Shown: piece by piece, positions 683 through 21,236 of the stretch | How positions within the stretch are numbered: the first letter of the stretch is position 1 | How the letters are laid out: each line of letters starts with the position of its first letter | NCBI GenBank assembly: GCA_963674745.2 | Contig: CAXXDV010000001.1 | Location: forward strand, 640,001-704,000 | Length of the DNA stretch: 64,000 nt | Reading direction: 5' to 3' | Source: Desulfosudaceae bacterium | GTDB lineage: Bacteria > Desulfobacterota > Desulfobacteria > Desulfobacterales > Desulfosudaceae | Position numbers and translations under genes: made by a program | Notes under the pieces: model-generated | Told to the model about the DNA's origin: nothing | The model's input: only the letters and a program-made list of their open reading frames with translations | The model's database searches: none

Positions 683-759
<77 letters not shown>

Positions 760-778
760 ATAAAATCAATTTAATCTG

Positions 779-1400
779 CTATTCAATCTCGGCCTTTATT
801 GCCGTGATATTTGAAATCGGGCAAACAGAAATTTTCTCTTCAGCAGGATAAGAAGCTGTTCCAGGATAAACGATCCACAGGTGCTCAAGATGAAGATCGT
901 TTATCGCGATACGCATAGACTTGGTTATTTCAGGGGCTTCTTTTAACTTGAACTCAATACCGTACGTTTTCCCTGTGCATAAAAAAGAGATCAAGTTCCG
1001 CGTTATAATGAGTGGCCAAGAAAAATGCCTGTGTCGGGTTCATTGTCTTTAAAACTTCTTCTAAGGCGAATTCCTCCAAGGATGCACCTACGGACGGATG
1101 TCCCCAGAACGTATGGTAGTCCGGAATATTCAACAGAAAATGGAGAATCCCCGTGGCCCTGAAGTAAACCTCGGGAGATTTTACCTGGCGTTTGCCGATA
1201 TTCCCATGCCACGATTGAAGTTGACGGAGCAAGAATGTACTGGACAGGATATAGAGGTAAGACCGAATGGTTTTGTCCGAGATACCCATGGATCAGGCTT
1301 ATCCGAAGTTCAACTGGAACGCGGTTGACAACGCTGATGATGGTTTACGATTAAAAAACGGGCTTGAGGGGATGACGCCCACTTCTTTAAAGATTTTTTT
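779..1400 (-). pseudogene. Degraded AAA-family ATP-binding protein with DUF4143-like C-terminus
   Basis: Two out-of-frame pieces (954-1289 GKRQVKSPEVYFRATGILH...ELDL; 779-994 GIEFK...LHLEHLWIVYPG) with upstream stops; left limit of homology approximate. Confidence 0.7.
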
Positions 1401-1515
1401 GATGTGTTATTTAGTAAACTGGCGTACTTGTACGATCGATAATAGCTTGACTTGTATCAATTTTTATGTTTAAAAAATCTTTAAATCCATCAAAAACAAC
1501 GAGACCGCCATAATA

Positions 1516-1601
1516 TTCATGCCAAAGCCAACCGCCGGGTGACCGGTTGACGGAAAGCAACGGGCCTTTTGTAATATAAAAGGCAGCCGGGCCGTCATGA
1601 A
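1516..1601 (+). ncRNA. c-di-GMP-I (GEMM-I) family riboswitch aptamer, variant
   Basis: P1 TTCATG/CATGAA; P2 CCGG-GTGA-CCGG GNRA hairpin; GACGGAAAGC junction; P3 ending GCAGCCGGG; lies in the leader of a surface-protein gene. Confidence 0.8.
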
Positions 1602-1614
1602 ACGATGATTTGAG

Positions 1615-1657
1615 GCCGGACCGCCTTTGGTAAAGAATGGTTCGGTTTTTTATTTTA
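1615..1657 (+). terminator. Probable intrinsic terminator (riboswitch expression platform)
   Basis: GCCGGACCG...TGGTTCGGT hairpin (with G-U pairs) followed by a T tract, between aptamer and start codon. Confidence 0.55.
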
Positions 1658-1688
1658 ATCTATACGGGGGGAGAAAAGGGGGGGGATC

Positions 1689-4600
1689 ATGAAAATCAAA
1701 CAAACCTGCCTGCTGACGTTGTTCCTGGGGCTGGTACTGTCAATAGCGACATATTCAATGGCGGATGTGGATTTTACCGCCAGCAAAATGTATGACGCCG
1801 CCGGGGACAATCCAAATCCAGTTGCCACTGGTGACCTTAACGGCGACAACCACCCTGACCTGGTAACAGCTAATCGGTCATCCAACAACGTATCCGTACT
1901 GATCAACAACGGCGACGGCACTTTTGCCGCGGCCGTAAATTACAGTACCGGGAACTGGCCATATTCAGTTGCCATCGGGGACTTGGACGGCGACTCCCAC
2001 CCTGACCTGGTAACAGCTAATTCTTATTCCAACGACGTATCCGTGCTGATGGGCAACGGTGACGGTACTTTTGCCACGGATGTCATATACAGCGCCGGAG
2101 ACGGGCCACATTCAGTTGCCATCGGGGACTTGGACGGCGACTCCCATCCTGACCTGGTAACAACGAATAATGATGCCGACGACGTATCTGTGCTGATCAA
2201 TAACGGCGACGGCACTTTTGCCATGCGCGTAAAATACAGCGCCGGGAACGGGCCACGTTCAGTTGCCATCGGAGACCTGGACGGCGACTCCCACCCTGAT
2301 CTGACAGTTGGTAATATTTTGGACGACAACATATCCGTACTGATCAACAACGGCGACGGCACTTTTGCCGCGGCCGTCAACTACAGCGCCGGAGACGGGC
2401 CACGTTCAGTTGCCATCGGGGACCTGGACGGCGACTCCCATCCTGACCTGGTAACAGCTAACCAGTCATCCGACAACGTATCCGTGCTGACCAATAATGG
2501 AGACGGCACTTTTACCGCCCCAGTCAACTTCGCTGCAGATAACTCCCCCTATTCAATCGTCGCTGACGATTTGAATGGTGATAATTATCTGGATCTGGCT
2601 GTGGCTAATTATTACTCTGAAAGTTTGACAGTGCTGTTGGGCCACGGCAACGGCACCTTTGCCGCCGCTGTTAATTACGCTGCCGGAGAGGGAGCATGTT
2701 CAGTTGCCGTTACCGATCTCGACGGAGATACCCACCCAGATCTGGTTGCAGTCAATGGTGTAGCTGACAATATTTCTGTTTTGGCAAATAACGGCGATGG
2801 GACTTTTGACTGCGCTGTTAAATACGATGCGGGTGACGGGCCCTTTTCAATTGCCATTACCGATCTGGATAGTGATGCCAACCTGGATTTGGCGGTGGTC
2901 AATAATTATTCTGACGATGTCTCTGTGCTATTGGGCAACGGCAACGGGACTTTTACCGCATATACCAGCTACAGCGTGGGTGATTCACCATGGACAGTAG
3001 CCAGTGCCGACCTGAACGGTGATAATTGTCCAGACTTGGCTACGGCTAACGGTGTTTCTGACAATGTATCGGTGCTGTTGGGCAACGGTGATGGGACCTT
3101 TGGCGTCGCTGTTAATTTTGCCGCCGGTGATCGACCAATGTCAATTGCGATTGACGACCTTGACGGTGATACTTTCCCTGATTTGGTGGTGGCTAACAAT
3201 AACTCTGACAACTTGTCGGTACTGCTGGGCAACGGCGATGGGACTTTTGACGCCGCTGTTAACTATTCTATTTGGGGATCACCCAATTCAATTGCTATTG
3301 CCGATCTGAACGGTGATAATTGTCCGGACCTCCTGGCAGGGGATGTCGACTATGACATCGTCTCGGTACTGTTGGGCAACGGCGACGGCACCTTTGCCAC
3401 CCATACTGATTACAGTGTGGGTGATTCACCAAAGTCAATAGCCCTTGCCGACCTGAACGGTGATACCTATCCGGACTTGGCTGTGGCCAACATTTCTTCT
3501 GACAATGTGTCGGTGCTGTTAGGCAATGGCGATGGGAGCTTTGTCGCCGCTATTAATTATGCCGCCGGAGATGGACCAAAAGCGATTGCCATCGCGGATC
3601 TGAACAGCGACACTCACCTGGACTTGGCAGTAGCCAATAATTATTCTGACAACATCTCGGTGCTGTTGGGCAACGGTGATGGCACCTTTGCCGCTGCCGT
3701 CAATCTTATTGCCGGTAACATGTTGGAATGTATTGCCATTGCTGACCTTAATGGAGACTCTGCGCCGGATCTTGTAACCGCTAATCAGAAAGCCGACAGC
3801 GTATCCGTGCTGATTAACCGTTCAACACTATCCTGCGACACCCCACCCGCTGCCCCCATCCCGACCTCACCCTCGGGAACCATTGATCAGACCACGCCGA
3901 TCTATGTCTGGGAGAGCGATCCCTGCGCCGATGCTTACCAACTTATCATCCGGGACGAGGCCCAACAGGATATCTTTTCCCAATGGTATGATGCAGCTGT
4001 GGTGGATAACGGTGACGGAACCTGTTCTATAAATCCCGGCCTGGAACTTGCCCCGGGTAGTTATTATTGGCTGGTGCAGGCGCAAAATCAGTATGGAACA
4101 GGTCCCTTGAGTACGGAAATGGCCTTTACGGTCGAAGAAGCCGATAGCGACGGTGATGGCACGCCGGATTCCAGTGACGGCTGTCCCTACGATCCGAACA
4201 AGATTGATCCGGGTGCTTGCGGCTGCGGTATAGCGGACACGGACACCGACAGTGACGGCACACCGGACTGCAACGATGGCTGCCCGAATGATCCGGCCAA
4301 GGTTGATCCGGGTGCCTGCGGATGTGGGATTCCGGATACGGACACGGACAGTGACGGTACACCTGACTGTAACGACTTGTGCCCAAATGACCCGAACAAG
4401 GTTGATCCGGGTACATGCGGATGCGGCATAGCAGACACCGATACCGACAGCGATGGTACCCCGGACTGTATTGATCAGTGTCCAAATGATCCGAATAAAA
4501 CCAATCCCGGTACGTGCGGATGCGGTGTGCCGGATACAGACTCCGACGTTGACGGTGTTCCGGACTGTAACGATCAGTGTCCCAACGATCCAAACAAGAC

Positions 4601-6212
4601 GGTTCCGGGAACCTGCGGATGCGGGGTTGCGGACACGGATACCGATAGTGACGGTACGCTGGACTGCAACGATGGCTGTCCCAACGATCCGGCCAAGATC
4701 GATCCCGGAGTCTGCGGCTGCGGCGTAGCAGATACGGATACGGACAGTGACGGTACGCTGGACTGTAACGACGGTTGTCCGAATGATCCGGCCAAGATCG
4801 ATCCGGGTGCCTGCGGATGCGGAGTGCCTGACACTGACACGGACGGTGACGGCACGCCCGACTGCAATGACCTGTCGCCTTTTGGTGTTGACTTTGGTGA
4901 TGCCCCGGATCCGACCTACCCGACACTGCTTGCATCAGACGGCGCCCGCCATACGATCCTCCCGGGATATTTTCTGGGTTCAGGCATAGACTACGAATCT
5001 GACGGTCAGCCTGACGTCGATGCCATGGGCGATGATAACAATGGAATTACGGACGAAGACGGGGTGGTTTTCAACACCCTTATTATTGCGGGTCAAACCG
5101 TGAGCTTGACAGTAACCGCTTCGGACACCGGGAACCTGGATGCCTGGATCGATTTGAATGGGGATGGTGACTGGGCTGATGCGGAAGATCAGATTTTTAC
5201 CAACCAGGCATTAACAGCCGGCGAAAACGATTTGGACATTGATCTTCCGGTCAGCGCTGTGGCAGGTATGACCTTTGCGCGATTCCGGTTCAGTGCAGCC
5301 GGTGGCTTATCATATGACGGCCTTGCCGCTGATGGAGAAATAGAAGATTACCAGGTTGAGATTCTGGGGGATGCAGATGGCGATGGTGAACCGGACATCA
5401 CCGATGGTTGCCCGAACGACGCGAACAAGGTTGATCCCGGTACGTGCGGCTGCGGTGTGTTGGATACCGACTCCGATGTTGACGGTGTTCCGGACTGTAT
5501 TGATCAGTGCCCCAACGATCCCAACAAGACGGTCCCAGGCACCTGCGGATGCGGCGTTGCTGACACGGACACCGACAGTGACGGTACGCCGGACTGTATC
5601 GATCAGTGCCCGAATGATCCCGATAAGACCGTTCCCGGTACATGCGGATGCGGTGTAACGGATGCTGATTCAGATAACGACGGTGTTGCGGATTGTAATG
5701 ACAATTGCCCCGGCACACCCTCCGGAGAAAGTGTTGATTCCAGTGGATGCGATATTGACGCTCCGACGCCCGACCCGATGGTTTTCTCATCCAACCCCTC
5801 GGCAGGTGGAACGGGTTCGATCAGCATGACCGCGGCAACAGCCGCTGACGGGAATGGTGTCCAATATTATTTTGAGGAGACAACAGGAAACAGCGGTGGG
5901 ACAGACAGCGGGTGGCAGGACAGTGCCAGTTATACAGACACCGGGTTAAGCGCCAGCACGCAATACGCGTATCGGGTCAAGGCCCGCGACAAATCCGCAA
6001 ACAATAACGAAACCGGCTGGTCTTCGGTACAGACCGCCACAACCGACGATCCGCCCAAGTCGGGCTGTGGCGCGGCGCCAATGGGACGCAACGGTATTGA
6101 CCCTGTTTCCGCCAGAAAATCCATGGGCAAGGCAGCGCTTCCGTTAGCGCCCTCGATCCTGGCACTGGGCATTTGGTCTCTGATTAACCGCAAAAAAAGT
6201 CGCGAGGCCTAA
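1689..6212 (+). CDS. Large secreted surface/adhesin-like protein: signal peptide, 14 FG-GAP/VCBS repeats, Ig/FN3-like domain, thrombospondin type 3-like Cys/Asp repeats, GEVED domain, FN3-like domain, C-terminal Cys + TM + basic tail
   Basis: 14 x ~49-aa (G/A/T/D)DL(D/N)(G/S)DxxxDL repeats; 33-aa DxDxDGxPDCxDxCPNDPxKxxPGxCGCG repeats; AWIDLNGDGDW...TFARFRF...GEIEDY; tail KSGCG...AALPLAPSILALGIWSLINRKKSREA. Confidence 0.9.
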   Translation: MKIKQTCLLTLFLGLVLSIATYSMADVDFTASKMYDAAGDNPNPVATGDLNGDNHPDLVTANRSSNNVSVLINNGDGTFAAAVNYSTGNWPYSVAIGDLDGDSHPDLVTANSYSNDVSVLMGNGDGTFATDVIYSAGDGPHSVAIGDLDGDSHPDLVTTNNDADDVSVLINNGDGTFAMRVKYSAGNGPRSVAIGDLDGDSHPDLTVGNILDDNISVLINNGDGTFAAAVNYSAGDGPRSVAIGDLDGDSHPDLVTANQSSDNVSVLTNNGDGTFTAPVNFAADNSPYSIVADDLNGDNYLDLAVANYYSESLTVLLGHGNGTFAAAVNYAAGEGACSVAVTDLDGDTHPDLVAVNGVADNISVLANNGDGTFDCAVKYDAGDGPFSIAITDLDSDANLDLAVVNNYSDDVSVLLGNGNGTFTAYTSYSVGDSPWTVASADLNGDNCPDLATANGVSDNVSVLLGNGDGTFGVAVNFAAGDRPMSIAIDDLDGDTFPDLVVANNNSDNLSVLLGNGDGTFDAAVNYSIWGSPNSIAIADLNGDNCPDLLAGDVDYDIVSVLLGNGDGTFATHTDYSVGDSPKSIALADLNGDTYPDLAVANISSDNVSVLLGNGDGSFVAAINYAAGDGPKAIAIADLNSDTHLDLAVANNYSDNISVLLGNGDGTFAAAVNLIAGNMLECIAIADLNGDSAPDLVTANQKADSVSVLINRSTLSCDTPPAAPIPTSPSGTIDQTTPIYVWESDPCADAYQLIIRDEAQQDIFSQWYDAAVVDNGDGTCSINPGLELAPGSYYWLVQAQNQYGTGPLSTEMAFTVEEADSDGDGTPDSSDGCPYDPNKIDPGACGCGIADTDTDSDGTPDCNDGCPNDPAKVDPGACGCGIPDTDTDSDGTPDCNDLCPNDPNKVDPGTCGCGIADTDTDSDGTPDCIDQCPNDPNKTNPGTCGCGVPDTDSDVDGVPDCNDQCPNDPNKTVPGTCGCGVADTDTDSDGTLDCNDGCPNDPAKIDPGVCGCGVADTDTDSDGTLDCNDGCPNDPAKIDPGACGCGVPDTDTDGDGTPDCNDLSPFGVDFGDAPDPTYPTLLASDGARHTILPGYFLGSGIDYESDGQPDVDAMGDDNNGITDEDGVVFNTLIIAGQTVSLTVTASDTGNLDAWIDLNGDGDWADAEDQIFTNQALTAGENDLDIDLPVSAVAGMTFARFRFSAAGGLSYDGLAADGEIEDYQVEILGDADGDGEPDITDGCPNDANKVDPGTCGCGVLDTDSDVDGVPDCIDQCPNDPNKTVPGTCGCGVADTDTDSDGTPDCIDQCPNDPDKTVPGTCGCGVTDADSDNDGVADCNDNCPGTPSGESVDSSGCDIDAPTPDPMVFSSNPSAGGTGSISMTAATAADGNGVQYYFEETTGNSGGTDSGWQDSASYTDTGLSASTQYAYRVKARDKSANNNETGWSSVQTATTDDPPKSGCGAAPMGRNGIDPVSARKSMGKAALPLAPSILALGIWSLINRKKSREA

Positions 6213-6224
6213 TCTTCACGAGAC

Positions 6225-6257
6225 AACAAGGGCGGTCAGGCAATGACCGCCCTTGTT
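6225..6257. terminator. Bidirectional terminator-like hairpin between convergent genes
   Basis: Perfect 14-bp stem AACAAGGGCGGTCA-ggcaa-TGACCGCCCTTGTT. Confidence 0.85.
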
Positions 6258-8214
6258 ATTTATAGGGGAAAAAGCGGCAGGCGGGATCGCCAAGCAGGTT
6301 GTACAGGAAAAGATCATTCCGCAGCATGCCCGGCGTGCCCAGTGACGCCTTTTCATTCTCAGGCACAGCATTTAAAAGAGACCTCGCCAGCGGGTCATTG
6401 CCGGCAATCTCGTTGAATGATTGATCCCCGGTATCATAGAGGGCCTGCTGAATGCCAAGGAACGCCTGGCCGATCGTGTCGGTCGTTTTTTGCAGATGCA
6501 TGATTATTCCCTTTACAAACAAATAGTTTGTCAGGGGATGGGTTGTGCCTGTTGCCGATACGACCCCGACAGGACCGTTTGGTTGGGCCAAAAACGCTTC
6601 CCCTAGAGACGGTCCGCTGCTTTTGGGCAGGCAATACCGTCCTGAGTCACACCCCAGCATAAAAAGAACACCCGGGGGGGAATTCCCTGCCGGAGAATTC
6701 AACGACATTTTCGAAACATCTTCTACGCTGAGAAATATCTCTTCACCATCGTAAGTTCCGGCTGTCACGCTCCGGTATGACCCGTGAGAGACGATGAGCG
6801 ACAGAAAGGGGCGGTTGCTGTTTAAGCGGGCAAGAAATGTAAAGGGCTGCGCTTTGAGTTCTCCTGATGAGACGGCCTGAGAATCCGCGCCGATAACAAC
6901 AGGAACAATCCAGTCCGGCAGGCGTTCCAGCAAACGGGGCGCCATCCGGCTCATCTGGGCCGTGTACCCCTGGGCGCCAAACCACACCAGCACCTTCTTT
7001 TGTGCAGGACCGGCATACTGTTTTGAATAGCTGATGATTTTTTTGATCTGTGCGTCAAGTTCAGCGGTAGACTGAATAGCCAGCCGCCCTACCGGCACAT
7101 CCGGCAAACCGTCATTGTCCATATCACCGTATTGAGCGTCCGACGTATATTTTCCGGAGGCAAACGACGGCATATGCCATGGGGCCTGCATGTCATTGCC
7201 ATGCCCGCAATCACCAACAATCAGGATATTTCCGATCGGTTCTTGGAACATCCTTTGCCGGCTCTCTATCCAGCCTTTTACGTCTTCGCGGTCCGGGGTG
7301 GTTTCCCAGGCCCTGACAACGACCCGATATCCTTCTTTTTCTCTAAAACCCGCCCATTCGTTTAAGGCCTCGGAAAAAACAGACCGGGTCACAACAAGAT
7401 AGGGGATTTGGTTAACGGTTTTCTCAGAAACCGCTTTAAACATCATATTTCTTATGCCGGTTCCCGCCAACAACGAAAGAAGCAGCAGACAGACGGCCGC
7501 GACAGCCCCTCTTTTCTTCCATTTCAGGATCAAAAGAACGCACAGGGATAAGATAAAAATCAACACACAAACGACCTGAAACACGCGTAGCCCCGGAATT
7601 AATAAAAGGCCGGAATCCGCACCTCTGAAAAACTCGCTGATAAACCGATGAGCGGCAAGAAACAGGCAGTACAGCGGAAATAAACAGACCCGCTTTTCAG
7701 GCTTCCCCCACAACCATTGAAGGATAACAAGGGAGAACGCTTCACCGATCATGCTGTAAATCTGGGTCGGATGCACCATGCAATTCAGACGATCTGAAAA
7801 AACAGCCCAGGGGACATCCGAAGGCGTTCCATAACAGCAGCCATTCACCAGGCATCCGATACGGGCGATAATATGGGCCAGCGCATAAGCCGGCGCGACA
7901 CTTCCCAGATTGCTCCAAAACGGCTTTTTAGCCACCCGAAGAACGATCCACATGCCGAGAGGTCCCAGCAGCGGGCCTCCCAGCCAGGTGCCTGTTTCCT
8001 GCCAGAAAGCGATTGCCAGCCAAAAGTCATCCACGAACAGTCGGGGATAGAAGATCAGCACATAAAGGATCCGGGTGCCCAGAAGACCGGCGTAGATCCC
8101 CGCAGTGAGGGCGATAATAGCCAGGGGGAAAGAGCAGCCGTTTTTGAACATGTTTCTGGTGGCCAGCACACCACCGGCAAGGAACCCTGTAAAGCCCCAG
8201 AACCAGTAATTCAT
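6256..8214 (-). CDS. Fusion of an Lgt (prolipoprotein diacylglyceryl transferase)-like membrane domain and a C25 (gingipain-family) cysteine peptidase domain
   Basis: Lgt-like motifs ARIGCLVNGCCYG, HPTQIY, RFISEFFR; C25-like motifs ILIVGD, DGLPDVPVGRL, SHGS (His), LGCDSG (Cys), YNLLGDPA; ATG at 8214 lies 2 nt after the upstream stop. Confidence 0.85.
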   Translation of the reverse strand: MNYWFWGFTGFLAGGVLATRNMFKNGCSFPLAIIALTAGIYAGLLGTRILYVLIFYPRLFVDDFWLAIAFWQETGTWLGGPLLGPLGMWIVLRVAKKPFWSNLGSVAPAYALAHIIARIGCLVNGCCYGTPSDVPWAVFSDRLNCMVHPTQIYSMIGEAFSLVILQWLWGKPEKRVCLFPLYCLFLAAHRFISEFFRGADSGLLLIPGLRVFQVVCVLIFILSLCVLLILKWKKRGAVAAVCLLLLSLLAGTGIRNMMFKAVSEKTVNQIPYLVVTRSVFSEALNEWAGFREKEGYRVVVRAWETTPDREDVKGWIESRQRMFQEPIGNILIVGDCGHGNDMQAPWHMPSFASGKYTSDAQYGDMDNDGLPDVPVGRLAIQSTAELDAQIKKIISYSKQYAGPAQKKVLVWFGAQGYTAQMSRMAPRLLERLPDWIVPVVIGADSQAVSSGELKAQPFTFLARLNSNRPFLSLIVSHGSYRSVTAGTYDGEEIFLSVEDVSKMSLNSPAGNSPPGVLFMLGCDSGRYCLPKSSGPSLGEAFLAQPNGPVGVVSATGTTHPLTNYLFVKGIIMHLQKTTDTIGQAFLGIQQALYDTGDQSFNEIAGNDPLARSLLNAVPENEKASLGTPGMLRNDLFLYNLLGDPACRFFPYK

Positions 8215-8216
8215 TA

Positions 8217-9095
8217 TTAAATTGATGAAATATTCAACCATTCCACAACGATATTAATACTCACGTGAATAATCAAGGCCCAACCGATGCCGGATGTCCT
8301 CTGCGTCACTGCGCCAAAAATCAGCCCGAGTGCCAGGACACATCCAAGATAACCGAAACCGGACAGAACAACAGGCCCAAGATGCATATGAAACACGGTG
8401 TAAAGCAACGCCTGAAAAATGATTCCCGGGATCAGGCCATACCGCTCCACACAAACGGGTTGAAGTATTCCCCGGTAGCAAATCTCTTCGGTGCCACCGG
8501 TCAGGGAGGCTTTCATGATCGCGATCAACACGACCCCCCAGAATGGTCCCAGCGGCTGAATCTGAATCCTTGTCACAATACCGATCGCCATGAAAACGGC
8601 TGCCGCGGAAGTAACGACCAGAACCACAGACAAGGGCGTTGTGACAGAAAAGCGCCCCCACGCCCCCCAACGAATGGGATTGCCCTGCCCATTGACGCGG
8701 TTCATAATAAGCACCGGAACCAGGACGTTGGCCGCAAATATGAAATGAAAATATAATAACAGCAGATATCCGTATAAATTACCGGGACGGGCAAGGGGCC
8801 ACGCGACTAGGCCATAATACCGAAAACAATTAAACACCCAGAATCCGGTGGCAAGAGCTGTAATTAACCTGAGTAGCCGACGATCTGCATAAACAGGTCT
8901 TAACACCGGGACAAATGCCGTAATCGCCATGCCAGTCACAATAAACAGGGCCACGGCAATACGCCAGCGGTCTGCCCCGGCTGCTGTGAGCAAATGAACC
9001 ACAAGTAAAAAAACAGCTAAAAGTGCAACCGGCTCAAATATTAAATATACTTTATTGTTTTTGTGAAAGGCGTGATCAGGGATATGCGTTTTCAT
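8217..9095 (-). CDS. CPBP (Abi/CAAX type II) family intramembrane glutamic protease
   Basis: Polytopic membrane protein with EEICYRG (EExxxR), FHMH and HVSIN (HxxxN) motifs. Confidence 0.85.
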   Translation of the reverse strand: MKTHIPDHAFHKNNKVYLIFEPVALLAVFLLVVHLLTAAGADRWRIAVALFIVTGMAITAFVPVLRPVYADRRLLRLITALATGFWVFNCFRYYGLVAWPLARPGNLYGYLLLLYFHFIFAANVLVPVLIMNRVNGQGNPIRWGAWGRFSVTTPLSVVLVVTSAAAVFMAIGIVTRIQIQPLGPFWGVVLIAIMKASLTGGTEEICYRGILQPVCVERYGLIPGIIFQALLYTVFHMHLGPVVLSGFGYLGCVLALGLIFGAVTQRTSGIGWALIIHVSINIVVEWLNISSI

Positions 9096-9235
9096 GGACT
9101 GATATTATACGATATTATTCCCCATGACAAAAGCACACACAACATTCAGGTATCCGCCAAAATCCACGATTGATTTTTCATGTGTTTTCCTAAAGGACAC
9201 AGCAGGTCAAAAAATCGTCCCCTTTAAATACTGAC

Positions 9236-9333
9236 GTTCTTGCAATACGTTGCATTGGTTGCACATAGGTTGCAGCGAGAGGTTGTTTCAGGGCAACTTT
9301 AACAGATTCGGTTTCAATAAAATCAATATGTTA
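9236..9333 (+). repeat. att arm-like region: four TTGCA repeats, GGGCAAC, IHF-consensus site
   Basis: TTGCA at 9240, 9250, 9259, 9270; AATCAATATGTTA at 9321-9333 fits WATCAANNNNTTR; near copy at 11036-11100, partial copy at 16736-16783. Confidence 0.7.
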
Positions 9334-9347
9334 TAGGTTAAAACAAA

Positions 9348-9393
9348 ACTTCGAATCCGTAGGCCGGGGGTTCGAACCCCTCCGGGCGCGCCA
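9348..9393 (+). repeat. Direct repeat of tRNA-Arg 3' half (att core, copy 2)
   Basis: 46 bp matching 714-759 with one mismatch, starting at the anticodon loop. Confidence 0.95.
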
Positions 9394-9404
9394 ATAAATT
9401 TATT

Positions 9405-10322
9405 TCAGAAAGTCCATGGACCTGACACAGTCCATTTTGAAGGCGGCGACTTTCGTGCAATCAAAGCCGAGGTTATCGGGCTGATAAATTCTTTCACTTG
9501 CATGACAATGATTTCGAACTCAGCAGGAACATGATCATGTTTGAGCTTTTTCCTGAAAGCATTCCATTGGACTTGTTTTGCTATGATGAACTCATGTGAA
9601 AAGGCAACTATATTTATGCTGTCTGGAAGTTCTGTCCCACGTTGCTCAAGCGTCAATCTGATCGCTTCTGACAGAATCTTACCATCAAAATCAAAATTGC
9701 GCGAAAGAAGCCAGATATCATAGAAATCCTTCATCCGGCTGTTCAACTCTCGACGTTTCAACATGGCTTCAAATTTTTCCGCGATCGAACTTTCACGGCT
9801 GTAACACAATAATTGAGGGGCCGGGAACTCCAGTATCGTCGGTATTTCTGATCTTTCAGGTTCGGGATAGATAATATCGCCGAATCCTATATCAATCTGT
9901 ATATTAAGCCTCATTGTATCCAGTTTTGTCGGAAACGATATTCTGACGCCCTGATATTCCGCATCCTCAGTAATATGCTCGGCCATTATGTTTTCAGGAG
10001 AGAAAGAGAGTCCGTCAGGATCAACAGCAACGGTTAGTATATCGGTTATATTGGAAATAAGTGACGACACGTCATTGTCTGTTTTACCAAGCAGGTCAAT
10101 GTCCATCGTTGATCGGATTTCAGGCGCTTGCCAGATCCGAAGCATCAGCGCCCCCTTCAGGATAAACCGGTTGGCATGCCGAGATTGTGCCAGGCGATAC
10201 AGAAACCGCTCCATGGCATAGTAATGAACCAGTTCTTGAAAAGGACGGCCATCAGTTCTGGCTTTATTGAGCAGCCGCTGTCTTACGGAGGCTGAGACAT
10301 TTTTCACCTGCTTTTTTATCAA
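9405..10322 (-). CDS. abiEii: AbiEii/AbiGii-family nucleotidyltransferase toxin (type IV TA)
   Basis: ERFLYRL, FILKGAL, RSTMDIDL, AEKFEAM, SRMKDFYD motifs. Confidence 0.9.
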   Translation of the reverse strand: MIKKQVKNVSASVRQRLLNKARTDGRPFQELVHYYAMERFLYRLAQSRHANRFILKGALMLRIWQAPEIRSTMDIDLLGKTDNDVSSLISNITDILTVAVDPDGLSFSPENIMAEHITEDAEYQGVRISFPTKLDTMRLNIQIDIGFGDIIYPEPERSEIPTILEFPAPQLLCYSRESSIAEKFEAMLKRRELNSRMKDFYDIWLLSRNFDFDGKILSEAIRLTLEQRGTELPDSINIVAFSHEFIIAKQVQWNAFRKKLKHDHVPAEFEIIVMQVKEFISPITSALIARKSPPSKWTVSGPWTF

Positions 10323-10912
10323 AGTGTTGCCTCCAGATAAGGCGTCATAATCTTTTTTACCCGACAGACCTCAGCGTACCTCAGCAGCTTTTCGAGATTG
10401 AATGGTTGCCTGGTTCGATACAGCTTAAGCGCTTCAAGAACAACCTCCATTCCAACTTTGTTCCGGAACTTAAAACAATCGGCCAGGGTCTTCTCCGGAG
10501 TATAGATCCTTACGTTTGCACCATCTATGGTGTGTTTTTCGATGCCGGAGGTGTAAGCTTTATCAGAGAATCGATGGGCCTGAACAGGAGGGTAGTCGAG
10601 AGAAGGGGCTCTTGAGTTTTTTGGCACCGCCACGGAAACAACATGTGGAATCTGGGTCGTGATATTATGGTAATGCAGGGCTGAGATAAGGCAGATTACG
10701 GTATTAGGGAACCGAAGGCTTACTGTAACAAGATCCGGGTTGGATAGCGGGGGCAGTTCCACAAGGCGATAAACACCTCTGGTCACTTGCTCTATTAGCC
10801 CCCTGTCTCTTAGCGAATAAAGCATATAACGCGTAATACCATGTGAAATCGCCTCACTCATTCGAAGTTGCCCGCCATGCTTCCGGAAAATTGTTAGTGG
10901 AGATTCTTTCAT
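10319..10912 (-). CDS. abiEi: AbiEi-family antitoxin/transcriptional regulator
   Basis: N-terminal wHTH (RGVYRL), ICLISAL.YH..TTQIP, EKTLADCFKFRN; 4-nt overlap with toxin gene. Confidence 0.9.
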   Translation of the reverse strand: MKESPLTIFRKHGGQLRMSEAISHGITRYMLYSLRDRGLIEQVTRGVYRLVELPPLSNPDLVTVSLRFPNTVICLISALHYHNITTQIPHVVSVAVPKNSRAPSLDYPPVQAHRFSDKAYTSGIEKHTIDGANVRIYTPEKTLADCFKFRNKVGMEVVLEALKLYRTRQPFNLEKLLRYAEVCRVKKIMTPYLEATL

Positions 10913-10920
10913 CTTTTTAA

Positions 10921-10968
10921 TCAGACATATTGTATATATTTGTAAATAATTAATGACATTATGTCTGA
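10921..10968. promoter_or_regulatory. Inverted repeat in abiE promoter, probable AbiEi operator
   Basis: TCAGACATATTGT ... ACATTATGTCTGA (13 bp, 1 mismatch) immediately upstream of the abiEi start. Confidence 0.6.
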
Positions 10969-11035
10969 ATCAGGATAAAAAAGTCAAGATGAATTTGAAA
11001 ATCCCTCAAAATTCGGACGAGACTTAAATTCTTAG

Positions 11036-11100
11036 GTTCTTGCAATACCTTGCATTGGTTGCGCATAGGTTGCAGCGAGAGGTCGCTCCAGGGCAACCTT
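11036..11100 (+). repeat. Second copy of att arm-like region, lacking an intact tRNA core
   Basis: 65-bp near copy of 9236-9300, offset exactly 1800 bp. Confidence 0.85.
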
Positions 11101-11164
11101 GACAATTATTTGCTAAACAAAATCATTTTTCTGACCTTCTATTAAGTCAAAAACAAGCCCGGGT

Positions 11165-11180
11165 TCGACAATAATGTCGA
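11165..11180. promoter_or_regulatory. Palindrome, candidate enhancer (UAS) for the sigma54 activator
   Basis: TCGACA-ATAA-TGTCGA about 100 bp upstream of a -24/-12-like promoter; another TGTCGA half-site at 11195-11200. Confidence 0.5.
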
Positions 11181-11276
11181 GCGAACACCTGGTTTGTCGA
11201 GCCCCACCTGCTTTCTAATCGGGCACATATTCTTTTACCTACTGGTTTCATAGCATATTTTGCCAGCCGCAGGGGT

Positions 11277-11292
11277 TGGCATGGTTATTGAT
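11277..11292 (+). promoter_or_regulatory. Candidate sigma54 -24/-12 promoter
   Basis: TGGCAT-GGTTA-TTGAT versus consensus TGGCAC-N5-TTGC (GA rather than GC at -12); gene cluster encodes its own sigma54 activator. Confidence 0.5.
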
Positions 11293-11357
11293 TTGATTGT
11301 TGTCAGATTGATTGGAAATGAATTTGAACAATAATCAAAACAAAAAGGAGCAAAACA

Positions 11358-11993
11358 ATGAAAAACATCAAATCAAAGATCATTGTCACAGTAATCGCCT
11401 TAAGTCTTTTCGTCATGGTACCGGCGACCTTTGCCGGGAACGGGAGAGGACAGGGCCAGGGCGCCGGAGACGGGAGCGGTCCTATTCACAGCATTCTTGA
11501 CGGCGTCCCTGTTGTGGTTGACGGTACGGTGGTCGCTTTGGGGACCAAGGGAAATGGTATCGAAATCGACGACGGTATCGACATTGTCACCGTATACGGC
11601 CTGGGGCCTGTTGCCTTCTGGGATGCAGCGGGAATGGTAAAGCCGGAAATCGGTGAAGACATCGTGGTCAACGGATTCGAAATTACCCTGTCGGATGGAT
11701 CAACCAAAATTATCGTGGCAAGCATCACCATTGGCGGGGATGAAATTATCCTTCGCGACCCGGAAACAGGCGCCCCCCTGTGGCGCGGCATTAACCGGTT
11801 TAACAATCAAAATCGAAACAGGACCGGGGACTGCGTATCTTTGTTGGATACCCCTGCTGATACACGGCTTCTCGCAAAAGGAGGAAACGGTCGTGGCGGG
11901 CATGGTCCGAAAGACGGCACCGGCAATGGGGGCAACGGCCCAAAAGACGGTTCCGGTTATGGGAAAAAAGCCGGCACCTGTAACATTGGCTGA
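11358..11993 (+). CDS. Exported protein with Gly-rich termini (GPKDGTG/GPKDGSG repeats), function unknown
   Basis: AAGGAG RBS, signal peptide ending ATFA, beta-rich core, Gly-rich ends. Confidence 0.75.
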   Translation: MKNIKSKIIVTVIALSLFVMVPATFAGNGRGQGQGAGDGSGPIHSILDGVPVVVDGTVVALGTKGNGIEIDDGIDIVTVYGLGPVAFWDAAGMVKPEIGEDIVVNGFEITLSDGSTKIIVASITIGGDEIILRDPETGAPLWRGINRFNNQNRNRTGDCVSLLDTPADTRLLAKGGNGRGGHGPKDGTGNGGNGPKDGSGYGKKAGTCNIG

Positions 11994-12214
11994 TATTGTT
12001 GAAAAAATATCCGGTTGAGCGGAAGGCCTAAAAATTGCGGTCATCACCGGAAAAGGACGCGGCCTCCGCCAACCCGGATATTTGCAAGAGACTTCATGTT
12101 TTTTATAAATATGCAAAACATTGAATTAAGAAAGAATATCATGATAAAAAGAGCAGGGACTAACATTTTTTCTCCAATCGTGTTCTTTATGAAGGATACT
12201 CGGGCATAGCGGAT

Positions 12215-13195
12215 ATGGTTTTTCAAAAAAATCGCACAACATCAAAGTTCACTCGCTATACCCTTATTCGGTTCTTTCCAATTCTAATTGTTATTCTTTT
12301 CCCAAAAATACAAACGCAGGCTTCGGCAATAGACACGGCCGTTGCGTTTGCGGTCGGGTATGATGACAACGTGACGCTTTCTCCGGTTTCTAAAAACTCG
12401 GCGTTTGCCCGCTATCAGGCATATCTGGCCCGGAATTTTTTTTCTGATGGAAGCCTGGCCGACTTCAAGGGTTATATCGGCGCCCAATATCAGGATTATT
12501 TCAGTGCCGGGGATAATTATTATATGTATGCCGGTGCTTCACTTGGTTACCCTGTGGCGGAAGGGCGATTAGTGCCTGAATTGTATTATGAAGGAACAAT
12601 ATTTCGTGACGATGAACTGCCTGAAGACAGTATGAACGAACATTGTCTGGGTGGTCGCCTGGACTGGTTCCCCCAGGCAAGAATCATTATCGGACTTCGG
12701 CAAAGCTGGTGCTGGCAGGATTATCGGGACAAAGAAGGCCCCGAAGTCTCTGGCAAACAAAAAGGCATGAACGGTCAGACCGGCCATGATGAATTAGAAT
12801 CACGTGATGACCGCCTGAGTTCAACCGGCTTAATGCTTCACTACAGTTTTACGCCTCAAACAGATGCGGAAATCTTATTCACACATGACCGATCATCTTC
12901 TTCCATTGAAAGAGAATCTTATTCAGAAAACGGCCTGGCATTATCGCTGTTATGGACGCCTATGGATCATTGGGAATTTTCCGGTAGGATGGGATGGGGA
13001 AAAACGGATTATGACCGTTCACCCCAGGATGTAAAAAGACAGGACAAGACCTGGCGGTTCGGTGTTGAGATAGGCCGTATAATTAATAAATACAAAATAT
13101 TTGCCCGTTATGAAAAAACAGACAATGACTCCTCGATTGATGAGGAAACTTATAAGAATATGGTGACGCAATGCGGCGTTTCATGTTTTTTTTAA
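12215..13195 (+). CDS. Putative outer-membrane beta-barrel protein
   Basis: Signal-like N-terminus, GYDDNV motif, alternating aromatic beta strands, C-terminal Phe. Confidence 0.65.
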   Translation: MVFQKNRTTSKFTRYTLIRFFPILIVILFPKIQTQASAIDTAVAFAVGYDDNVTLSPVSKNSAFARYQAYLARNFFSDGSLADFKGYIGAQYQDYFSAGDNYYMYAGASLGYPVAEGRLVPELYYEGTIFRDDELPEDSMNEHCLGGRLDWFPQARIIIGLRQSWCWQDYRDKEGPEVSGKQKGMNGQTGHDELESRDDRLSSTGLMLHYSFTPQTDAEILFTHDRSSSSIERESYSENGLALSLLWTPMDHWEFSGRMGWGKTDYDRSPQDVKRQDKTWRFGVEIGRIINKYKIFARYEKTDNDSSIDEETYKNMVTQCGVSCFF

Positions 13196-13584
13196 TAATA
13201 CTGATTCATCTGGTTACCATCCCGGCGGCGGCGGCGGATGCCATCTTGGGCACCGTTGTTTCACTTGATCGTGAAAAAGGAGAAATGACCGTCCGTTTAA
13301 GTGACACCTTTAATTCGATTGATGAACCCGAAGTCAATACTGAACCAGAAATTGTAACGGTCAATTTTAACGCCGATCAATTGGAAAAAAGCATTAAAGT
13401 CGGCAGGCTGGTGCGGCTGTGGGGCAGTTTTGGGTCAGGCGCACAAAACGTCTTTCAAGCCACCGTAATTGAAAGAAGCGACAGACAAAACAGGTTTGAC
13501 CCGACCGGCGTGCGGGGACGGCTTGGGAAAAGAAGGGGAATGGGCAGCGGACATCATGGCGGAAAAGGACGTGGCGGCAATTGA
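13171..13584 (+). CDS. Small exported beta-rich (OB-fold-like) protein with Gly/basic tail
   Basis: Signal peptide (AAAA-D), GTVVSLD...VRLWG, overlaps both neighbours. Confidence 0.65.
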   Translation: MRRFMFFLIILIHLVTIPAAAADAILGTVVSLDREKGEMTVRLSDTFNSIDEPEVNTEPEIVTVNFNADQLEKSIKVGRLVRLWGSFGSGAQNVFQATVIERSDRQNRFDPTGVRGRLGKRRGMGSGHHGGKGRGGN

Positions 13585-15176
13585 AAAAGAGGCATGAAGG
13601 GACACCCATTATAAATCATTTTCAAATAAAATCTCCGTGGAAAGCCAACATCATTGTTATCGGGACATTGATTCTGATTGTTTTGGGATACTTCTTCTGG
13701 CAGCTCCAGTATACTGAAAAAACATTTCGCAATCATATTAACGATCATGCCCTGATGCTGGCCGGTATGATTCGTTTGAATGCCGACAATTCAGTATTAT
13801 CACAGGAAATCATCGAAGAGATCATGGTGACTTTTCTGGGGAATTCTGCACGTTTCGTCGATTACCTGGATTCCATAGAACCGTTTAACAGTGATGAGCT
13901 GACCGCATTTGCCGAAGAGTCCGGGCTGGCGGGCATCTGTATCGTCAGAAAAGACGGACGGATTGTGGAGGGCCCCCCCGGATGGTTTCTCCTGAAAAAC
14001 CGTTACCATACTGAGAATTTTGTCATTCATCATTTAAAAGACAACAATATCTACTATTTTTCTATCCCGGGCAATAACGATTCAACATGCATCCATGTCG
14101 GACTGGCCGGCAAAAGAATCGACGAATTAAAAAACCAGGTTGATCTGAACCATATGTTGAGCATCCTGTCAGGGCAGCCCGGCATCCGGTATGTTCACCT
14201 TGACCAGAAACGTTTGTCAGATAATAATCCAGGGCCCCTTTCCAATGTAAAAATGATTGAAAATAAAAATGGCCGGATTGCCGAAGTGCGTGTCCCTCTG
14301 GGAGACGATGTTCTGGTAGTTGGACTTGAAGCGATCAGTTTCTTTAAACGTGTCAATCAACTCCGTTATGAATTCATTGTTTTCAGCATCATTATTGCCG
14401 GTTTAGGCGCTTTTTTCACCTGGGTTCTTTACCGTTACCAGATGGCACATCTGGCCCAGGCACAAAAATTTGAGCGTCGACTGGCGGCCGAACAGGAGGA
14501 CGCCGCCCTGGGCCGGGCATCGGCCACCATCACCCATGAAATACGAAACCCTTTGAATGCCATCAGTATGGGGCTTCAACGCCTGGGTTTAGAAGCCGAT
14601 GAAATGAACGACGAGCATCGCGACCTGGTTTTAAACCTGCAAAAAGCCGTGCAGAGGACCGACAATATTATCAACGGACTTCGTCGTTACTGCACCCCCC
14701 TGGTTCCCCGGCTTGAAAATGTCAGGATCGATTCGATTATCGACCACATTCTGGCTTTATACCGGCAGGCCTGCACCGACAACTCAATCTCGATTAATTA
14801 CCACCCTGAATATCAGCAAACGATTGCTGCTGATTTTAATCTTCTGGAAGAGGTTTTCGAAAATTTAGTCAAAAACGCGATAGAAGCACAACCAGACGGC
14901 GGTGATATTGAGATCAGGCTTTACAAAAAAAGCCCGGATCTTGTTATTTCCATAGAAAACGGCGGATTTGATTTGTCTTCAGATGAGGCGGATAAAATTT
15001 ACAAACCGTATTTCACAACCAAAACCAGGGGGTCCGGTTTAGGGCTATCCATTTCCGCCCGAATTATCCGTGCCCATGGCGGGCGGATGGAACTACAGGT
15101 GCCGGATGCCGGGCGCCTGCGAATCAACATTTTTCTTCCGGTTGAAAGAGATGATCATGAAAATTCTCGTGGTTGA
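13581..15176 (+). CDS. Membrane sensor histidine kinase
   Basis: Two TM segments, H-box HEIRNPL, N-box NLVKNAIEA, FTTK, GSGLGL. Confidence 0.95.
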   Translation: MKKRHEGTPIINHFQIKSPWKANIIVIGTLILIVLGYFFWQLQYTEKTFRNHINDHALMLAGMIRLNADNSVLSQEIIEEIMVTFLGNSARFVDYLDSIEPFNSDELTAFAEESGLAGICIVRKDGRIVEGPPGWFLLKNRYHTENFVIHHLKDNNIYYFSIPGNNDSTCIHVGLAGKRIDELKNQVDLNHMLSILSGQPGIRYVHLDQKRLSDNNPGPLSNVKMIENKNGRIAEVRVPLGDDVLVVGLEAISFFKRVNQLRYEFIVFSIIIAGLGAFFTWVLYRYQMAHLAQAQKFERRLAAEQEDAALGRASATITHEIRNPLNAISMGLQRLGLEADEMNDEHRDLVLNLQKAVQRTDNIINGLRRYCTPLVPRLENVRIDSIIDHILALYRQACTDNSISINYHPEYQQTIAADFNLLEEVFENLVKNAIEAQPDGGDIEIRLYKKSPDLVISIENGGFDLSSDEADKIYKPYFTTKTRGSGLGLSISARIIRAHGGRMELQVPDAGRLRINIFLPVERDDHENSRG

Positions 15177-16491: not shown

Positions 16492-16735
16492 CCCTTTTTC
16501 CAAAGCTGTTCATTCATCCCAGTGACAGTTCCTGAAGGCGAAGTAAAAGATATTTATCTGGCTGCAAAACACTCCGCTGCACTGAAAGCATTAGTTAAAC
16601 TAATTTTTTGAATGTCTTGGGAATACACCATACTTCAGTTTAAAGAAAATCAACGTACCTTTTGGATAACCAAGACTAAGTTCAAAAACGGTTCCCTGTA
16701 TTCTATAATATAGCCGGACCGCCTTATTTTTTTAC

Positions 16736-16843
16736 GTTTCAGGGCAACTCTAACGATTTTGGCCAAATAATATCAACATGTTATGCATTTAAGTAAAACT
16801 TCGAATCCATAGGCCGGGAGGTCGAATCTCTCCGGGCGCGCCA
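16736..16843 (+). repeat. Third att copy: partial arm, IHF site and degenerate tRNA-Arg 3' half
   Basis: GTTTCAGGGCAAC as at 9285-9297; TATCAACATGTTA (16771-16783); core 16798-16843 with 4 mismatches to 714-759. Confidence 0.85.
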
Positions 16844-17024
16844 ATATTTCAGAACATTATGTTGTCAACAAAATCTTCCGGTTTTTAAAAAAGGTCAAAA
16901 AGAGGATGTTTTGGCATTTTTGCTATTCATCAAGGGGGAGGCATGGGCAGGTCATAATTGCCCGCTCTTGAAGACATGAGCATACGCAGCAATGAGACGA
17001 CAATGGGATAAATTAGCGTTTACA

Positions 17025-19232: not shown

Positions 19233-19325
19233 TTAACGCCCTCATACTGTCTTGACTTTTAATGACTCGTTTATATCTAATGGTCCTGGCAACCAGATGA
19301 CGCCAGGCCATCATAAAGGACGAAA

Positions 19326-20783: not shown

Positions 20784-21236
20784 ATGAAAACAATGCAATT
20801 ATCATTACCAGACGCCAAGGCCACTGGGCCGGTAGGTACGGTGTCAACGGAGGGAGCCCGATTATGGCTACTGGGCTGAATAATCCAAAATTTGCCAACC
20901 GGACGACACAGTAAAGCTGCCTCAAAAATCCCGTGTTTTTCTTTGTTTTCCAATGCCTTGAAAAGTTTTCTGTTCTTTTTATCTTTTTGACAATGTCCTG
21001 TCGAATCCCGCCTGAAAGGCCCATCAACAAGTTTCGCCCTCAGAAATATTGACACACAAGACCGCACTTGCTATAAATGATGACCATAAAAGCACCTTCT
21101 TATCCTTGAAAATTAAGAGGCTACAGAAAGCAGATTACAAAAAAATAAGTAGCAACATTAACACCCAGCACTTTGCACTGCCCAGTTAAAACTTTAACGC
21201 GTTTTATTAACAACAACTTTAGAAGAAAGTCGCCCC

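Follow-up and report, generated by a model that had tools for sequence, protein, structure and literature searches.

A candidate C-terminal protein-sorting cassette with a Cys-containing tail, a CPBP protease and an Lgt-C25 fusion in a Desulfosudaceae bacterium

The DNA analysed here, hereafter the window, comprises 64,000 nucleotides of a Desulfosudaceae bacterium (contig CAXXDV010000001.1, positions 640,001 to 704,000). Near its left end lies a cassette of three genes, which encode a large exported repeat protein with a Cys-containing C-terminal tail, an intramembrane protease of the CPBP family and a fusion of an Lgt paralogue with a C25 peptidase. In our best reading, the cassette is a Cys-containing C-terminal sorting system of the myxosortase type in which the signal, the CPBP subfamily and the obligatory partner, an Lgt-C25 fusion, are all new. 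That the enzymes belong to a dedicated system for processing or sorting this tail is very probable.

The tail and the two enzymes

The substrate gene (1689..6212, forward strand), identified from the list of open reading frames (ORFs) and Pfam, encodes a protein of 1507 aa with a signal-like segment at its N-terminus. Pfam detected 13 FG-GAP_3 stretches (9e-106) and a GEVED domain (3.9e-13), and the protein also contains runs of 33-aa Cys-rich repeats with a weak TSP_3 (thrombospondin type 3) match below the cut-off; the corresponding DNA repeat periods were 147 nt and 99 nt. It ends in ...PKSGCGAAPMGRNGIDPVSARKSMGK / AALPLAPSILALGIWSLI / NRKKSREA, and an alignment of 13 tails delimited the last 55 aa (6045..6209, forward strand) as the sorting tail. 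The signature K-S-G-C-G-A-A-P (6057-6080, forward strand) contains Cys1460, from which a spacer of 21 residues leads to the hydrophobic helix AALPLAPSILALGIWSLI (18 residues, 6132-6185, forward strand) and the basic end (6186-6209, forward strand). A preliminary description of this DNA had reported a huge exported repeat protein ending in Gly-Cys, a spacer, hydrophobic and basic residues, with the Cys codon at 6066-6068, and both the architecture and the position of the codon (6066..6068, forward strand; residue 1460) were confirmed. This Cys, the proposed lipidation site, was invariant in 13/13 neighbouring and 50/50 database tails.

Pro(+4) and the intramembrane Pro were, together with the Cys, invariant among the 13 neighbouring tails. 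A tail profile of 55 positions, searched against 1.84 billion cluster representatives at E <= 1e-3, matched 53 proteins, 26 of them at E <= 1e-10, and in 51 of the 53 the match ended no more than 20 residues from the C-terminus. Three rows (a repeat-protein false match, an internal match and a 30-aa fragment) were dropped. Among the remaining 50 tails, Cys and the intramembrane Pro were present in all (for Cys, in 46/46 tails not identical to a training tail), Trp in 47, Gly(+1) and Pro(+4) in 46 each and Lys(-3) in 40. The window tail scored 85.6 bits with this profile and was the sole tail match in its genome.

The CPBP gene (8217..9095, reverse strand) encodes a Rce1-like intramembrane glutamic protease of 292 aa, matched by Pfam at 48.4 bits vs a cut-off of 22.4 (1e-12), with its core at 8247-8537 and Glu203/Glu204 at 8484-8489 (reverse strand). 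E203, E204, R208, F235, H236 and H277 were invariant in 13/13 members of the family; the catalytic motifs concerned are EExxxR, F/YxxxH and HxxxN/D. The N-terminal half (GFWxF..FRY..WPL..H) was family-specific and conserved among the same 13 members. The stop of the CPBP gene and the start of the fusion gene overlap by 25 nt (8217..8241, reverse strand), with the fusion ATG lying within the Glu-Trp codons of CPBP (GAATGG). The two genes had been described as a tightly spaced operon with a 2-nt gap; the close spacing stands, but counted from the first ATG (8241) there is an overlap, and the gap results only when Met10 is taken as the start. The upstream start was used in 12/16 aligned homologues. 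The CPBP and fusion genes are probably translationally coupled. Prediction of a complex between the two proteins gave a score of 0.00, a run without controls that weighs neither for nor against binding.

The fusion (6256..8241, reverse strand; Pfam and alignments) has 661 aa and matched both Pfam LGT (125.5 bits vs a cut-off of 24.9, 2.7e-36) and Pfam Peptidase_C25 (111.5 bits vs 23, 7e-32), so that the earlier naming of the pair as a CPBP protease and an Lgt-like/C25 fusion was upheld for every domain. The Lgt equivalog model TIGR00544 reached 55.9 bits, below its cut-off of 118.9. The Lgt-like domain was placed at residues 12-237 (7531..8208, reverse strand) by Pfam and by profile alignment to the PDB structure 5azb. 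In this alignment Arg127 (7861-7863, reverse strand) and Arg199 (7645-7647, reverse strand) pair with R143 and R239 of E. coli Lgt, R206 with R246, and H157-P..Y162 with H196-P..Y. R143 and R239 are essential and form the catalytic pair of E. coli Lgt, according to the available text of Mao 2016 (PMC4728403). Among 16 aligned fusion sequences, the members being 36-57% identical to the query, R127, R199, R206 and H157-P..Y162 were all invariant, and Y12, the equivalent of Y26, was nearly so. The host also has a housekeeping Lgt (227 bits), a separate gene on another contig, whose product is 33% identical to the fusion domain over 209 aligned residues.

The Peptidase C25 domain occupies residues 281-656 (6274..7401, reverse strand), as indicated by Pfam, profile alignment and Foldseek. 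His486 (6784-6786, reverse strand) and Cys531 (6649-6651, reverse strand) pair with the gingipain His and Cys in the H-G and C motifs, with Cys531 conserved in 16/16 and His486 in 15/16 fusion sequences; this pair is presumably the catalytic dyad. The AlphaFold2 (AF2) model of the fusion had a mean predicted local distance difference test (pLDDT) value of 84.6. Foldseek paired it with the gingipain RgpB (1cvr) at E 5e-12 and with Lgt (5azb) at E 2.3e-5; the TM-scores, normalised to the target, were 0.60 and 0.57, respectively. In the profile alignment, the match of the C25 domain to RgpB was poor around the S1 pocket. Judged from their sequences, the Lgt, C25 and CPBP enzymes all look active.

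Lgt has a seven-helix topology with a cytoplasmic C-terminus. In the fusion, the last Lgt helix (220-238) is followed by a KWKKRG loop, an extra hydrophobic segment seen by hydropathy (residues 245-263; 7453..7509, reverse strand) and then the C25 part of 398 residues. A positive-inside charge pattern has been described for Lgt (PMC4728403, in the text available). With a cytoplasmic end of the Lgt part and one more membrane segment after it, the C25 part would come to lie in the periplasm, next to the periplasm-facing cavity of Lgt. Thus, the C25 domain is probably periplasmic and tethered by the extra segment beside the Lgt domain.

Other members of the two enzyme families were also encountered. 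Short Lgt-only relatives of the fusion (224-267 aa, 53-60% identity) exist, some of them on contigs of 20-39 kb. Three further Lgt-domain proteins of about 400-490 aa (P0057-P0059) carry PDZ domains (PF17820, PF13180), another fusion of Lgt to a peptide-binding module. The genome of the window holds a third Lgt-family gene (G000:C1:1875034-1875732; a 349-aa frame, 28 bits to Pfam LGT, signature GRLACLSFGCCYG), and no Cys-tail neighbour was found within about 9 kb of it. A second Peptidase_C25 domain in this genome (244 bits; G000:C3:1934012-1935043) lies within an open frame of 2971 aa and is unrelated to the cassette.

Linkage of tail and enzymes

A protein search with the fusion returned 57 rows, 51 of which (query included) had both LGT and Peptidase_C25; these two-domain proteins showed 35-57% identity over the full length and bore generic names only. 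At the DNA level, nine loci were obtained from genome contigs (L001-L007 with both domains, L008 with the Lgt part only, L009 an unrelated weak Lgt match) and 12 from metagenome contigs (L010-L017 true fusions, L018-L021 weak Lgt matches). Three loci of a second phylum, L047-L049, were found with an Lgt-only relative as the query and were kept out of all profiles. The preliminary description had proposed that fusion homologues be checked for neighbouring CPBP genes and Cys-tail proteins, and such neighbours were indeed frequent. A CPBP gene stood directly upstream of the fusion in 18/18 loci other than the window (7/7 genome, 8/8 metagenome and 3/3 later independent loci), its product matching the CPBP protein of the window at E 1e-25 to 2e-84. 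The fusion ATG lay inside Glu-Trp/Cys codons of the CPBP gene in 17/19 loci including the window, with overlaps of 16-28 nt, the exceptions being L006 and L048. According to the sequence records, the loci belong to Desulfoluna, a 'delta proteobacterium', SAR324, Pirellulales and Nitrospiraceae metagenome-assembled genomes (MAGs); at least four lineages are represented.

A tail-bearing gene was located within the locus in 13 of the 19 loci. Its tail was alignable in the window, L001 (two genes), L002, L004, L006, L011 and L013-L017, each at 66-87 bits, and in L047 and L049 the gene next upstream of CPBP encoded a more divergent tail of the Cys / spacer / helix / basic type. Of the six loci with no tail gene inside, L010, L012 and L005 are short contigs cut beside the enzymes, and tail genes occurred elsewhere in the genomes of L003 (74 and 73 bits), L005 (76.8 bits) and L048 (54.8 bits). 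Most often, the tail gene, CPBP and fusion followed one another in this order on the same strand; in the window, in L001 and in L004, tail gene and fusion are convergent instead.

The passenger proteins in front of the tail were diverse. For example, M4 thermolysin-like proteases with a propeptide (FTP) and PKD domains were found in L001, L004 and L017, an M28 peptidase in L001, a chagasin-type inhibitor with a papain C1 protease and MAM in L011, a subtilase S8 in L014, FN3/Ig arrays in L006 and L013 and a disaggregatase-like protein in L016, besides the FG-GAP/GEVED protein of the window. One short tail thus ends many unrelated exoproteins, indicating that it is a portable sorting signal.

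Several single loci deserve mention in their own right. The L011 protein (1339-3741, forward strand) combines an I42 chagasin-type inhibitor, papain C1, MAM and MopE-like metal-binding motifs in one chain, an inhibitor fused to its likely target protease. About 2 kb from the fusion of L049, at 4130-6250 (forward strand), a protein with another Cys tail (..AMGCAAGSG.., then a hydrophobic stretch) is encoded; the tail profile did not match it, and it could represent another type of Cys-tail substrate. In L004, from a SAR324 MAG, the fusion (6902-9219) is split into overlapping ORFs (6902-7933 and 7840-9219) by a frameshift, either real or an assembly error, and a matching short protein of 336 aa (P0074) exists. 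Genome G406 holds two cassettes, an intact one (L048, 8160-11550) and a decayed one (L008, 2614-3900) with its CPBP split over two frames, and a well-conserved tail gene adjoins the decayed one. L008 was considered as a natural variant lacking C25 and was rejected: the copy is degenerate (a frameshift in CPBP, a fusion that ends behind the Lgt domain), and its genome also contains the intact cassette. Likewise, the length class of the fusion (about 660 vs about 780 aa) could not be tied to a tail subtype, as long fusions occur with both subtypes.

The distribution of the fusion among genomes was sporadic. In 401 genomes sampled from the phylum of the window, the full-length fusion occurred in one, the window's own, and in a second phylum it occurred in 3/135; a gene found in so few genomes cannot be a housekeeping gene. 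The other Lgt matches in the 401 genomes covered the Lgt part alone, in frames of about the length of a stand-alone Lgt, and one genome gave a C25-only match. A tail profile had been proposed earlier for phylogenetic profiling; the profile built here matched 8/9 fusion-carrying genomes searched vs one weak match in 400 fusion-less genomes of the same phylum, a 24-bit match to the helix/transmembrane (TM) part only. One of the tail-positive genomes has two tail genes on another contig and none adjoining its cassette. Since the genomes are related, these co-occurrence counts are descriptive and carry no statistical test.

Candidate mechanism and competing explanations

The closest relatives of such a system are the myxosortase systems. 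In the available part of a preprint by Haft (10.1101/2023.06.07.544157), four Cys-containing tripartite signals are described as being processed by CPBP 'myxosortases': MrtX, MrtC and MrtP act with MYXO-CTERM, MrtJ with JDVT-CTERM, MrtS with Synerg-CTERM and MrtA with CGP-CTERM (10.1101/2023.06.07.544157; PMC11980579). MrtX was reported to cleave MYXO-CTERM in a Cys-dependent manner, also in E. coli (mBio 2025, PMC11980579). According to the accessible text of both sources, lipidation of the invariant Cys in MYXO-CTERM-type tails probably precedes cleavage by CPBP; both describe the modifying enzyme as unknown and name Lgt only as a leading candidate (10.1101/2023.06.07.544157; PMC11980579).

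The cassette shares with these systems the tripartite tail (invariant Cys, membrane helix, Arg/Lys cluster) as well as a cognate CPBP protein with intact motifs. Like JDVT-CTERM, which the accessible part of the preprint presents as a dedicated, sporadic and co-operonic system (10.1101/2023.06.07.544157), it is dedicated, sporadic and often co-operonic and serves one target or a few, and like Synerg-CTERM, as far as that signal is described there, it has an invariant Pro in the helix. However, the cassette CPBP, which has its own conserved N-terminal half, stayed below all Mrt cut-offs where scores were shown. The NCBIfam models for MrtS, Mrt_core, MrtJ and MrtC scored 20.6-25.5 bits on the CPBP protein of the window vs cut-offs of 75-195 (for Mrt_core, 23 vs 100 bits), and weak matches within the CPBP family were obtained with MrtJ in 12/13 and with Mrt_core in 10/13 members, the best E values ranging from 7e-10 to 1.5e-4. 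The tail is different too. Its K-x-x-C-G-A-A-P-M-Y-R-x-G motif and the spacer of roughly 20 residues between Cys and helix match no CTERM model, and MYXO-CTERM-type tails are without the conserved spacer seen here. The window tail matched no NCBIfam family (June 2026) at E <= 10; among the 13 tails, JDVT-CTERM matched 2/13, at best with 5e-4, and MYXO-CTERM models matched 1/13 at 0.055 and 2.6. Furthermore, the cassette always has a second gene, the Lgt paralogue fused to C25, and no such partner is mentioned for myxosortases in the available portions of these sources. We found no paper on an Lgt-C25 fusion or on this tail, although the supplements of the preprint could list related families; the earlier statement that no described system was known to combine the three activities agrees with our search, in which neither such a paper nor an NCBIfam model was found.

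From these comparisons a specific scheme can be proposed, which we consider rather likely. The substrate would be exported by Sec through its N-terminal signal, and the C-terminal helix and basic end would then hold it in the inner membrane, as the tail architecture suggests, leaving the passenger, the Cys motif and the spacer in the periplasm. There, the Lgt-like domain would take a diacylglyceryl group from phosphatidylglycerol and attach it to the Cys1460 thiol, a role suggested by the family it belongs to and by its conserved catalytic arginines. CPBP would next cut distal to the modified Cys, as the analogy to Rce1 and MrtX suggests, thereby removing the spacer, the helix and the basic end. 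In the weakest step of the scheme, C25 might make a further cut or a transfer in the conserved spacer (P-M-Y-R-x-G ... S). Finally, the C-terminally lipidated protein may move outward, for example via a type II secretion system; GspD-type secretins are encoded in the genome. Whether the complete pathway operates as a 'reverse lipoprotein' route, in which an Lgt paralogue lipidates a near-C-terminal Cys, CPBP removes the helix and a C-terminal lipid anchor results, we regard as an even question. A variant in which C25 is a Lys-specific cutter acting after Lys(-3) was weakened, as this Lys is absent in 10/50 tails, including two strong independent ones.

The logic of the scheme is that of the Lgt/LspA/Lnt pathway, where a Cys is lipidated and an intramembrane protease then removes the anchoring peptide. 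The Lgt fold, the equivalents of R143, R239 and R246 and a Cys acceptor flanked by small residues (G-C-G) are held in common. In contrast, the acceptor here is C-terminal, its helix lies on the opposite side, 21 residues off, and there is no lipobox; the peptide would be removed by CPBP, not LspA, and the Lgt domain is a paralogue beside a housekeeping gene. CAAX processing by a prenyltransferase and Rce1 is similar in that a Cys is lipid-modified and a CPBP-family protease cuts just after it, as outlined in the sources available to us, and C-G-A-A-P resembles C-a-a-X. However, the reaction would take place in the periplasm instead of the cytosol, the proposed lipid is diacylglyceryl and not prenyl, and about 47 residues, a membrane helix among them, separate the motif from the C-terminus.

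A number of observations weigh against the proposed scheme. Cys1460 is 21 residues from the helix, whereas the Cys is close to the helix in a lipobox and also in MYXO-CTERM-type tails, as far as these are described in the text available; access of the Cys to the membrane-embedded sites of Lgt and CPBP had to be assumed because of this distance. The scheme needs two activities only, so that a conserved and apparently active C25 domain is left without explanation. In the Lgt part, the fusion family replaces H103 (by L/W), N146 (Cys130) and E151 (Cys135) of E. coli Lgt and does not keep the equivalent of Y235. In the housekeeping Lgt of the host, the positions of N146 and E151 are likewise taken by Cys, and that of H103 by Tyr; the signature form 'RIGC..GCCYG' is common to both proteins, suggesting a lineage trait instead of decay. 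The hairpin that would place C25 in the periplasm was drawn from hydropathy and charge, and AF2 draws residues 220-270 as a single unbroken helix in which the TM7/TM8 hairpin is unresolved. In two of the three independent loci, the tail has diverged so far that the profile scarcely picks it up (18 bits) or gives no match, the Cys-TM-basic architecture being kept. The MAG of L007 (G405, 2.9 Mb, completeness unknown) has the fusion but no detectable tail. In addition, the loci are kin, and their counts are not independent events.

PorU cuts the C-terminal sorting domain of its cargo and re-anchors that cargo in type IX secretion, and the best of the competing explanations, which we nonetheless hold to be unlikely, gives the C25 domain a similar task. 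In such a transpeptidation, C25 would cut the tail and transfer the new C-terminus to an amine-bearing acceptor via an acyl-enzyme intermediate, the Lgt-like domain would bind or prepare a phospholipid-derived acceptor without alkylating the Cys, CPBP would clear the membrane stub, and the Cys would serve in recognition or as a transient thioester. Unlike the lipidation scheme, this gives C25 a job. It is consistent with the C25 fold and the aligned, conserved His/Cys pair shared with PorU and the gingipains RgpB and Kgp, with the physical fusion of C25 to a phospholipid-binding enzyme, with a conserved spacer long enough to reach a periplasmic active site, and with the detection of PorU as a relative of the domain (6za2, 6e-7 by profile alignment; Foldseek rank 21). 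However, the NCBIfam cut-offs for PorU orthology were far from being reached by the C25 domain (NF033707, 16.8 bits, 1e-3, vs 420; NF052324, 15.9 vs 450), and the hydrolytic gingipains are closer. The cassette C25 also differs from PorU and the gingipains in being fused to a polytopic Lgt-like domain, and the signal on the cargo consists of a short helix tail in place of a beta-sandwich C-terminal domain. Moreover, the Lgt residues for activation of the C3-O toward a Cys thiol are the very ones conserved, and an invariant Cys together with CPBP fits the pattern of Rce1 and the myxosortases, in which the Cys is modified and then cut.

A slightly less likely explanation is that the tail keeps exported hydrolases and adhesin-like proteins waiting in the inner membrane until CPBP and/or C25 frees them, with the Lgt-like domain as a scaffold and the Cys as a recognition element. 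Many passengers are secreted-type hydrolases with propeptides or the like (M4 with FTP, S8, C1 with a chagasin-type inhibitor, M28), for which a timed release would be sensible; two proteases are encoded vs one putative transferase, and Lys(-3), seen in 40/50 tails, might indicate cleavage on the proximal side of the Cys. Nevertheless, a mere scaffold is unlikely to keep the Lgt arginines and HP..Y invariant at 36-57% identity, and it is the Cys that is invariant in 50/50 tails, whereas the Lys is missing in 10/50. In addition, according to the available text of PMC11980579, removal of MYXO-CTERM in M. xanthus causes release, so the related tail anchors there.

Mere adjacency is very improbable: the fusion and CPBP would then work in N-terminal lipoprotein maturation or envelope housekeeping with tail genes as chance or hitch-hiking neighbours, which could appeal to the normal action of Lgt on N-terminal lipoboxes, to the CPBP-fold protein LnsB in N-terminal lipoprotein tailoring of S. 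aureus (PMC7387801, in the part available) and to a common ancestor cassette that makes linkage partly a matter of inheritance, but the genome already has a housekeeping Lgt, the passengers were swapped many times while the tail was kept, tail genes elsewhere in a genome still co-occur with the enzymes, and no strong tail-profile match was found in the 400 fusion-less genomes. The LnsA/LnsB pair does resemble the cassette in that a membrane protein of the CPBP fold and an enzyme with a Cys/His dyad act together in lipoprotein tailoring; as described in the same available part (PMC7387801), however, LnsB is without the CPBP catalytic residues, which are invariant here, LnsA is an NlpC/P60 and not a C25 enzyme, and the pair acts on N-terminal Cys amines.

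The tRNA-Arg islet and implications

The cassette resides in an islet of 8.6 kb (~760-9347) with three intact genes and one truncated ORF. The integration site is a tRNA-Arg gene (TCG; 683..759, forward strand), just upstream of which lies tRNA-His (553-628), both found with ARAGORN. A repeat search revealed a direct repeat of 58 nt, whose left copy (714..771, forward strand) covers the final 46 nt of tRNA-Arg and a further 12 nt and whose right copy (9348..9405, forward strand), a 3' fragment of tRNA-Arg, marks the far end of the islet; the copies showed 93% identity by the figure of the repeat tool. A tRNA-bounded island at 760-9393 had been described before. The tRNA-Arg at its left was recovered, but the far boundary is the 58-nt repeat and no tRNA gene. 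That it has only three intact genes was corroborated (ORFs 1689-6212, 6256-8241 and 8217-9095). Between the tRNA and the substrate gene (760-1689), the sole recognisable ORF is a truncated DUF4143 (954..1289, reverse strand; Pfam profile positions 41-147 of 160, without the ATPase part), probably the remnant of a gene brought in with the islet.

The 32-nt core of the repeat has three copies in the window vs 0 expected by chance. The third copy, at 16812-16843, is degenerate with 3 mismatches, and it indicates two tandem islets at tRNA-Arg. The second islet (window 9394-16843) encodes AbiEii (9405-10322) and AbiEi (10319-10912), followed by a weak porin-like ORF (12215-13195), a histidine kinase (13581-15176) and a sigma-54 response regulator (15070-16491).

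In our reading, the cassette was acquired horizontally. Its G+C content is 0.50-0.60, compared with 0.41-0.47 just outside and 0.505 genome-wide. The flanking tRNA repeats, the sporadic spread and the occurrence in several phylum-level lineages fit the mobility that had been claimed for it. However, no integrase or mobility gene was found in either islet (Pfam on ORFs in 779-1473 and 9405-22589), so that present-day mobility stays an inference. A tblastn search of 72,556 plasmid records with the fusion gave no match at E <= 1e-10.

In these loci a myxosortase-like protease gene overlaps the gene of a private Lgt paralogue beside Cys-tail substrates, and this provides independent comparative support, by genomics only, for the idea that Lgt modifies such tails. 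If true, this would be the first system whose Cys-CTERM lipid transferase is identified by gene fusion and linkage, and it would imply that MYXO-CTERM and related tails are lipidated in the same way by the housekeeping Lgt. A third step, either spacer trimming or a PorU-like transfer, would then come from the fused C25 domain, which raises the new question of the role of a gingipain-type protease when fused to Lgt. For annotation, the gain is a new sorting signal and an enzyme pair, each represented by about 50 protein clusters in the searched databases. Three genes and a 55-residue tag are small enough to be rebuilt in a laboratory host, in which the chemistry, the cut sites and the order of steps are testable. 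Provided that anchoring follows the proposed route, the tail could also be used as a portable tag for lipid anchoring at the C-terminus.

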